The translations under genes and the position numbers were made by a program. The notes beneath the pieces are model-generated. The model saw nothing but the letters and a program-made list of their open reading frames with translations, was not told where the DNA came from and did no database searches. Of a stretch of 64,000 nt of DNA, positions 25,644 to 25,931 are shown piece after piece. This DNA is from Chiloscyllium plagiosum (Eukaryota): positions 6,603,210 to 6,667,209 of the forward strand of contig NC_057755.1 of NCBI RefSeq assembly GCF_004010195.1, written 5' to 3'. Every line of letters begins with the position of its first letter. Position 1 is the first letter of the stretch.

Positions 25644-25931
25644 AGGTAAAAAAAACAATGACTGCAGATGCTGGAAACCAGATTCTGGATTAGTGGTGCT
25701 GGAAAAGCACAGCAGTTCAGGCAGCATCCGAGGAGCAGTAAAATCGACGTTTCGGGCAAAAGCCCTTCATCAGGAATACCTTGTAGAGAGAGGAGGATAA
25801 CTTCTTCAAGGCAGGCATCCTTGCAAGAGGATTCGCAAGAAGGGCTTTTGCCCGAAACGTCGGTTTTACTGCCCCTCGGATGCTGCCTGAACTGCTGTGC
25901 TTTTCCAGCACCTCTAATCCAGAATCTGGTT
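25644..25931. mobile_element. Palindromic Penelope-like mini-element (family B)
   Basis: Inverted arms 25676-25768 and 25839-25931 (90/93 matches); flanked by TGGTTAATATGTT (25631) and TGGTTCATATGTT (25927); contains the hammerhead motif. Confidence 0.8.
25742..25777 (-). ncRNA. Minimal type I hammerhead ribozyme motif with intact core
   Basis: AUUC-CUGAUGA-A-GGGC-UUUU-GCCC-GAAA-C-GUC|GAUU: conserved CUGANGA, GAAA and UH boxes; 4-bp stem II; palindromic ACGU stem III; short stem I. Activity is not shown. Confidence 0.7.

Follow-up and report, generated by a model that had tools for sequence, protein, structure and literature searches.

A short fold-back insertion with a minimal hammerhead motif in Chiloscyllium plagiosum, probably a truncated copy of a Penelope-like element

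Penelope-like elements, their hammerheads and the locus compared

Insertions of Penelope-like elements (PLEs) often carry an inverted, 5′-truncated copy together with a 30–40-bp tail on one end, according to the parts available of [10.1101/2021.04.23.441226], [PMC8969392] and [PMC3846280]. In the rotifer examples of the last of these, an inverted PLE terminal repeat (pLTR) is accompanied by a 31-bp tail that continues into the ORF, and by a target-site duplication (TSD) of 8–10 bp. The formation of tandem and inverted PLE insertions is named as unresolved in the accessible sections of [10.1101/2021.04.23.441226]. Purified Poseidon protein, a predicted dimer, cleaves AT-rich DNA on both strands and extends each of them; in the same account, as far as it was available [PMC11167929], two internal start sites delimit the tail, uncleaved RNA is used as template and cleavage by the hammerhead is assisted. 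The ORF of the Anolis carolinensis Poseidon element PAc begins inside the hammerhead region [PMC11167929].

The minimal hammerheads that Cervera and De la Pena (2014) defined in metazoan PLEs [PMC4209133] have an extra nucleotide after position 9, a G10.1–C11.1 pair and a palindromic 15.2–16.2 segment. They are described, in the available parts of that paper and of a review [PMC6765202], as not cleaving as single motifs and as cleaving at a low level as dimers. Fishes, coelacanth, Xenopus and reptiles are among the hosts named in the accessible text of [PMC4209133], and sharks are not; Schistosoma is described there as having dual motifs 100–700 bp apart on opposite strands. Non-LTR retrozymes [PMC7229834; 10.64898/2026.07.22.740005, both available in part] are short, non-coding, pLTR-derived and dependent on PLE protein, and carry a type-I hammerhead.

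The insertion described here occupies positions 25644–25931 of a 64,000-nucleotide stretch of C. plagiosum DNA, referred to below as the window. It shares with endonuclease-positive PLEs (Penelope/Poseidon and Neptune), as described in the parts available of [PMC3846280], [10.1101/2021.04.23.441226] and [PMC8969392], the head-to-head arms, a tail at one end, a short putative TSD, a microhomology junction, a hammerhead in the terminal repeat and a tail running into the 5′ region of the element. It differs from them in that all coding sequence is missing and the whole insertion is 288 bp, and its putative TSD is 13 bp, compared with the 8–10 bp of the rotifer examples [PMC3846280]. Three structural hallmarks of PLEs were thus found together, namely a hammerhead in a terminal repeat, an adjacent inverted truncated copy and a one-sided tail in the 30–40-bp range. 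The hammerhead resembles those of [PMC4209133], in the part of that paper available, in its extra nucleotide inserted after position 9 and before 10.1, the G10.1–C11.1 pair, the palindromic 15.2–16.2 segment without loop 3, the short helix I and the occurrence of mostly solo, dispersed copies. However, helix II is 4 bp, compared with 7–8 bp in Schistosoma.

The likeness to PAc, as described in the available sections of [PMC11167929], would extend to a tail bounded by two internal starts that lie downstream of the hammerhead, to the AT-rich target with both strands cut and extended, and to an uncleaved RNA template, each of which is deduced for this locus from its structure. RNA ends at the cut site are absent from public RNA-seq in the PAc account and from the one polyA single-cell run available for this locus. 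The starts of PAc are reported as non-homologous to the target, whereas the inner end here has 5 nt in common with it, and the two starts are not linked to inverted insertions in the parts available of that study. Retrozymes are arranged as head-to-tail tandems with at least two ribozymes on the same strand [PMC7229834; 10.64898/2026.07.22.740005]; here, by contrast, the copies are inverted head to head and only one core is complete, and same-strand hammerheads in tandem were not found at this locus. A literature search over main texts found no description of shark PLE hammerheads, and the family may already be catalogued in Repbase or Dfam, which lay outside that search.

Anatomy of the insertion and its hammerhead motif

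Between two copies of a putative TSD, the insertion consists of a tail with hammerhead-bearing pLTR and 59–60 nt from the 5′ part of the parent, followed by a tail-less pLTR in inverted orientation. The left arm (25676–25768) and the right arm (25839–25931) are inverted with respect to each other and match at 90/93 positions, the mismatched pairs being 25694/25913, 25734/25873 and 25744/25863. The 70 bp between them (25769–25838) form the spacer. A direct repeat at 25631–25643 and 25927–25939 lies flush against both ends of the insertion with 12/13 identity, and its right copy overlaps the right arm by 5 nt. A first-pass annotation of this DNA had described the arms, spacer and direct repeat in the same terms, and all three were recovered; the 32-bp tail at 25644–25675, which is found on the left arm only and has no mirror on the right, had been passed over. 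The score of the direct repeat was reached by 8/150 random position pairs, so that the 12/13 match is modest alone and draws its weight from its exact abutment at both ends. No empty target site was found among 15 listed of 219 joints in public sequencing runs.

The sense part lies on the minus strand. Its pLTR segment (25676–25778) includes the hammerhead and ∼70 nt downstream of it, forms the left arm of the fold-back and has very high summed depth in three organisms. The tail is the ∼32-bp 3′ end of the long arm, and its end would mark an outer start of reverse transcription; equivalent tails are present in two alignments of family copies, A1 and A2. The spacer proper (25779–25837) is a high-copy piece that appears to come from the 5′ region of the parent element, possibly the ORF start; it follows the tail in other copies, and here it is joined directly to the hammerhead. 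On the plus strand, the short arm is an inverted, tail-less and 5′-truncated pLTR copy that starts at hammerhead core position G8. The putative TSD copies represent an AT-rich target, the first 5 nt of the right one being the microhomology with the end of the short arm.

A single reading frame of 64 codons is open throughout the sense part (25646–25837, minus strand). Compared with some other copies, the tail has 3 additional bases in its A-run, a difference that keeps the frame. The copy itself is non-coding. Motifs of PLE reverse transcriptase (RT) or GIY-YIG endonuclease were found 0 times in six frames of the window, which yielded only 3 LINE-type RT motifs; LINE-type reverse transcriptase ORF fragments, by motif not of PLE type, are located at 4982–5908, 49118–50398 and 54558–55244. 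Protein searches with a 40-aa frame covering spacer and hammerhead recovered no relatives, which is a weak test. A 43-aa frame covering hammerhead and tail had one match (P0001), a repetitive protein from a one-member cluster with an E-value summing 14 stretches, which was rejected as chance; a further protein search with this frame gave no match, again a weak test.

From 25777 to 25742 the minus strand contains a complete minimal type-I hammerhead core, predicted from sequence by direct reading and by descriptor. It comprises the 5′ strand of stem I (25777–25774), CUGAUGA (25773–25767), an extra A (25766), stem II (25765–25754), GAA (25753–25751), the palindrome ACGU as stem III (25750–25747) and C17 (25746), with the predicted cut between 25746 and 25745. 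Helix II has 4 bp, and helix I consists of 2 bp, a U.U and 1 bp. Core and cut are as read in the first-pass annotation, and the features support, at the level of sequence, its assignment of the motif to the PLE-type minimal hammerheads defined in the available part of [PMC4209133]. The annotation had also suggested a search by Rfam or by descriptor. A strict descriptor, demanding the core, a G–C closing pair, a stem II of at least 4 bp, a palindromic stem III and a stem I of at least 2 bp, matched the window twice, at 25773 and at 26279 and each time on the minus strand, and had 0 matches in 200 dinucleotide shuffles. Rfam returned no hammerhead among 12 matches up to E = 10 over 24500–27000, the motif being one without stem-loop III; its microRNA matches are far below gathering scores and reflect the hairpin shape. 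Exact-pattern hammerhead scans of viral contigs and of metagenome contigs yielded 0 loci in each case.

The full core (C3–A9, G12–A14, A15.1–U16.1, H17, and stems I and II) is confined to the minus strand at the locus, which agrees with the earlier view that only one strand could cleave. That view had, however, been explained by loss of the CUGA box from the opposite arm. As the right arm starts at G8, it probably never had the box.

Sequestration of the hammerhead by the inverted arm most likely renders the ribozyme of this copy silent. The inverted arm is synthesised before the hammerhead in a minus-strand transcript, and folding predicts that it pairs with 25768–25745, and so with stem II, GAAA and the cut site, at a probability of at least 0.97. 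The transcript of the fold-back is predicted to form a hairpin of about −198 kcal/mol. For the isolated 36-mer, an alternative fold is predicted at −11.4 kcal/mol versus −5.2 kcal/mol for the hammerhead-like monomer, and no second core of the same family (family A) was found nearby on the same strand for dimer formation. Cleavage from this copy is unlikely according to these folding predictions. RNA ends did not pile up in one raw RNA run from organism A, a polyA single-cell library that is ill suited to the purpose, and no RNA reads fell on the unique flanks of the locus within the sampled 2% of run X21. Reads on the element itself in X21 run in both directions (∼711 versus 726 at 25708–25731) and come from paralogous copies, so that they are uninformative for this locus.

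Related copies in the window and in public sequencing runs

BLAST with the element detected six older family-A relatives in the window, near 7144, 27540, 29070, 33387, 40717 and 45914. A second family (family B), different in sequence, lies 270 bp away (26197) and has relatives near 1047, 17702, 21218, 22926 and 30653. Its hammerhead core is the same, stem II has 5 bp, and AGCU takes the place of the family-A palindrome ACGU. Family-B fold-backs at 26197–26412, 30640–30825 and 21205–21389 carry their own minimal hammerhead with a predicted CUA cut and a one-sided tail, and the copy at 21205 is flanked by a perfect 13-bp TSD. One older family-A copy (40750–40845) is a fold-back without spacer, and a palindromic centre immediately 5′ of its hammerhead marks where the arms meet.

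Seven copies in the window are two-armed (4 of family A and 3 of family B), and the tail is on exactly one arm in 7/7, two of the family-A arms having been judged only from a comparison outside alignments A1 and A2, each of which includes one uninformative row. Tails on the tailed arms are 30–40 bp, and tail-less arms stop at a fixed inner point, between columns ∼121–127 for the 4 short-arm rows of 8 in A1 and columns ∼101–105 for the 5 of 9 in A2. Distances between arms are 0, 13, 20, 41, 70 and 99 bp across the window copies. TSD-like repeats around the two-armed copies are good in 4/7, where they reach the score of the repeat described above, weak in 2/7 and absent in 1/7.

A 16-bp target motif, which resembles part of a LINE, is adjoined by four older copies, three from family A and one from family B (27524–27748, 29044–29249, 33362–33377 and 17787–17802). 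It occurs 14 times in the window versus 0.95 expected by chance, and it would be explained either by an insertion hot spot lying in a different repeat or by old insertions having been duplicated segmentally. Genes for tRNA-Val(TAC) and tRNA-Lys(TTT) are located at 24548–24620 (minus strand) and 34853–34925 (plus strand), and the sequence around 22860, 24680 and 34260 is alike, as if duplicated locally. Also present in the window are a degenerate 29-bp satellite at 59856–63812 (the longest array, ∼137 copies), 48077–48340 and 56609–57291, and inverted-repeat pairs unrelated to both hammerhead families at 41541–41996, 42034–42463, 27047–27472 and 39814–40065.

Four of 24 listed public runs were mapped at 88% likeness, namely a raw RNA run and a contig set of organism A and the contig sets of organisms B and C. 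The three contig sets include 50,197, 59,582 and 10,106 contigs matching the element. Summed depth on the left arm is 1e6–1e7 versus ∼11–12 on the unique flank, a ratio that is not a copy number, and on the spacer proper it is 1.9e5–5.1e5 in two DNA-like runs, against the same flanks. Most relatives diverge from the reference at 25776–25778, just 5′ of the hammerhead. Depth just within the spacer is 1.2–6.1% of hammerhead depth, which is an upper bound for the copies that have the junction between spacer and hammerhead seen here (25778/25779). Family copies depart from the reference at 25651 in all four runs, with letters matching the tail end, and in 4/12 listed rows the spacer end at 25837 runs back to 25651–25664 via 22–35 letters. 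Because other copies run from spacer into tail end in this way, the spacer appears to be what lies beyond the tail in the parent element.

Of 15 listed among 219 joints, 11 turn round from the left to the right arm, and they do so at 9 different positions, so that the centres of the fold-backs vary across the family. The outer ends are fixed. Some centres are common to many copies: the joint 25775→25839 has a depth of ∼1370 in run X12 (organism B) versus ∼11 for single-copy sequence, and the joint 25745→25839 has ∼217 in run X3. The latter belongs to another copy, and its departure point from the left arm coincides with the predicted cleavage site, as expected if a cDNA ran off a cleaved RNA, and as 1 of 219 joints it may be there by chance. 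Both arms of the insertion carry two alleles that are in the minority in the family (25716/25891 and 25739/25868), and therefore both arms would come from one source template.

Variation in the hammerhead, from 40 of 59 variant rows, consists of six CpG transitions (5–21%), N7 and two loop II positions. The catalytic G12 is among the CpG-decaying positions and is changed in 7–16%; the listed variants outside CpG affect only loop II and N7, a position that is free to vary. This pattern is as expected if source elements were under selection and their copies then decayed neutrally. Intact G12 is not enriched among RNA reads (11.6% changed). One G–C/A–U double change in stem II separates subfamilies. 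Covariation of the stems, put forward in the first-pass annotation as a check, was not above shuffles on decayed window copies (201/500 and 433/500, alignments of 8 and 9 rows with one uninformative row each).

The insertion had been called young at first pass, and this holds in a relative sense only, since its right junction was found in a second organism. A contig of organism B spans 25880–26120, covering 52 letters of arm and 189 of flank with 13 differing letters and 1 gap at a depth of 10.9, and the insertion probably predates the split of organisms A and B. The divergence between the arms, 3/93 (95% interval 0.7–9.1%), is compatible with the divergence between A and B, 13/240 (2.9–9.1%).

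Proposed formation and competing explanations

Membership of the element in the PLEs is likely on its sequence features. The insertion is, with good though not full confidence, interpreted as a dead-on-arrival, truncated insertion of a very high-copy PLE family, in which the fold-back was made at insertion. As the copy is non-coding, it would have been inserted by the protein of another element. The RT/GIY-YIG protein of an autonomous copy would nick both strands of the AT-rich target 13 nt apart, and each nicked 3′ end would prime inward cDNA synthesis on uncleaved element RNA, both arms extending past the predicted cut. One cDNA would start at the outer site and thereby acquire the tail, and the other at the inner site, aided by the 5-nt match to the target. 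Both would stop early and be joined centrally, giving the head-to-head arms. The junction of spacer and hammerhead may reflect a template jump, an internal deletion or a short non-autonomous template. The hammerhead itself would be the ordinary pLTR ribozyme of the family, selected in source elements to act as a dimer or with protein help.

Twin priming is a concept from work on L1. The fixed inner ends of the short arms favour two such priming events, judged from the aligned copies. Two published statements run counter to this step: inversions of PLEs are attributed to self-priming on an antisense template in the available part of [PMC3846280], and no difference in start site between strands is reported in that of [PMC11167929]. 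A literature search joining twin priming and Penelope found nothing on PLE mechanism by title or abstract.

The explanation that survives best beside this one, itself improbable, differs from it in the template only. The template would be a non-autonomous unit, similar to a non-LTR retrozyme, in which ∼209 nt made up of hammerhead, tail, 18 nt and spacer are repeated head to tail, and that could cleave as a dimer and circularise and would use PLE protein in trans, with the inversion still arising at insertion. A closed circle of ∼209 nt does result when the meeting of spacer and tail end elsewhere (4/12 listed rows) is combined with that of spacer and hammerhead here, and non-LTR retrozymes derive from pLTRs and have been detected in one chondrichthyan genome according to the part available of [10.64898/2026.07.22.740005]. 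However, continuity from tail to 5′ region is expected of any full PLE, depth at the spacer edge is only 1.2–6.1% of hammerhead depth, and none of 24 listed pieces extends beyond 25781 into the spacer. The window contains no tandem and has the spacer once, and the retrozymes in the accessible text of [PMC7229834] have canonical rather than minimal hammerheads.

A further proposal concerns stem III and is a speculative one, held with little confidence. The palindromic stem III of PLE minimal hammerheads would be an RNA-dimerisation contact more than an aid to cleavage, pairing two element RNAs for a dimeric RT/endonuclease whose subunits prime both nicked strands from two start sites. The asymmetry of one tailed and one tail-less arm in 7/7 copies has a chance of <1% if each arm picked its start independently with equal odds. 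Since the bare ACGU duplex has only −1.7 kcal/mol, such a contact would need protein help. In a weaker variant of this proposal, part of the family may be a circular retrozyme-like unit of ∼209 nt.

The first-pass annotation had favoured a ribozyme-bearing unit mobilised in trans. Its non-coding nature and its dependence on the protein of another element are retained in the interpretation preferred here, but the fold-back as the mobile unit is not, as the centres vary. That the whole 288-bp fold-back is a fixed non-coding unit, transcribed and re-mobilised as such, is accordingly regarded as very improbable. Its clean ends with TSD, and the few central junctions common to many copies (∼1370 in X12 and ∼217 in X3), would suit such a unit, and some fold-backs may be amplified; recurrent centres are, however, also expected from preferred microhomologies or segmental duplication. 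Many different centres are present, the predicted hairpin of about −198 kcal/mol would hide the ribozyme, and the unique flanks are without RNA reads in the sampled 2% of X21. A MITE-type DNA transposon with terminal inverted repeats and an incidental hammerhead-like motif would explain the long inverted arms and flanking direct repeat but can be set aside almost entirely, given that the inverted repeats are not symmetric and terminal on both sides (a one-sided 32-bp tail, the pattern in 7/7 two-armed copies), the centres vary raggedly, 0 descriptor matches in 200 shuffles put the hammerhead hit beyond chance, and a second, sequence-distinct family keeps the same core with another palindrome (AGCU).

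As a single locus, the truncated PLE insertion is one of very many dead PLE ends and carries little weight. As a population, such copies would allow twin priming to be told apart from self-priming, through genome-wide counts of fixed outer ends, tails on one side and centres that vary. If the dimer-template idea were true, the one-tailed asymmetry would be a genomic footprint of coupled twin priming. Fold-backs of this kind can be misfiled as MITEs or as microRNA hairpins, and host transcripts that contain them may give rise to double-stranded RNA.
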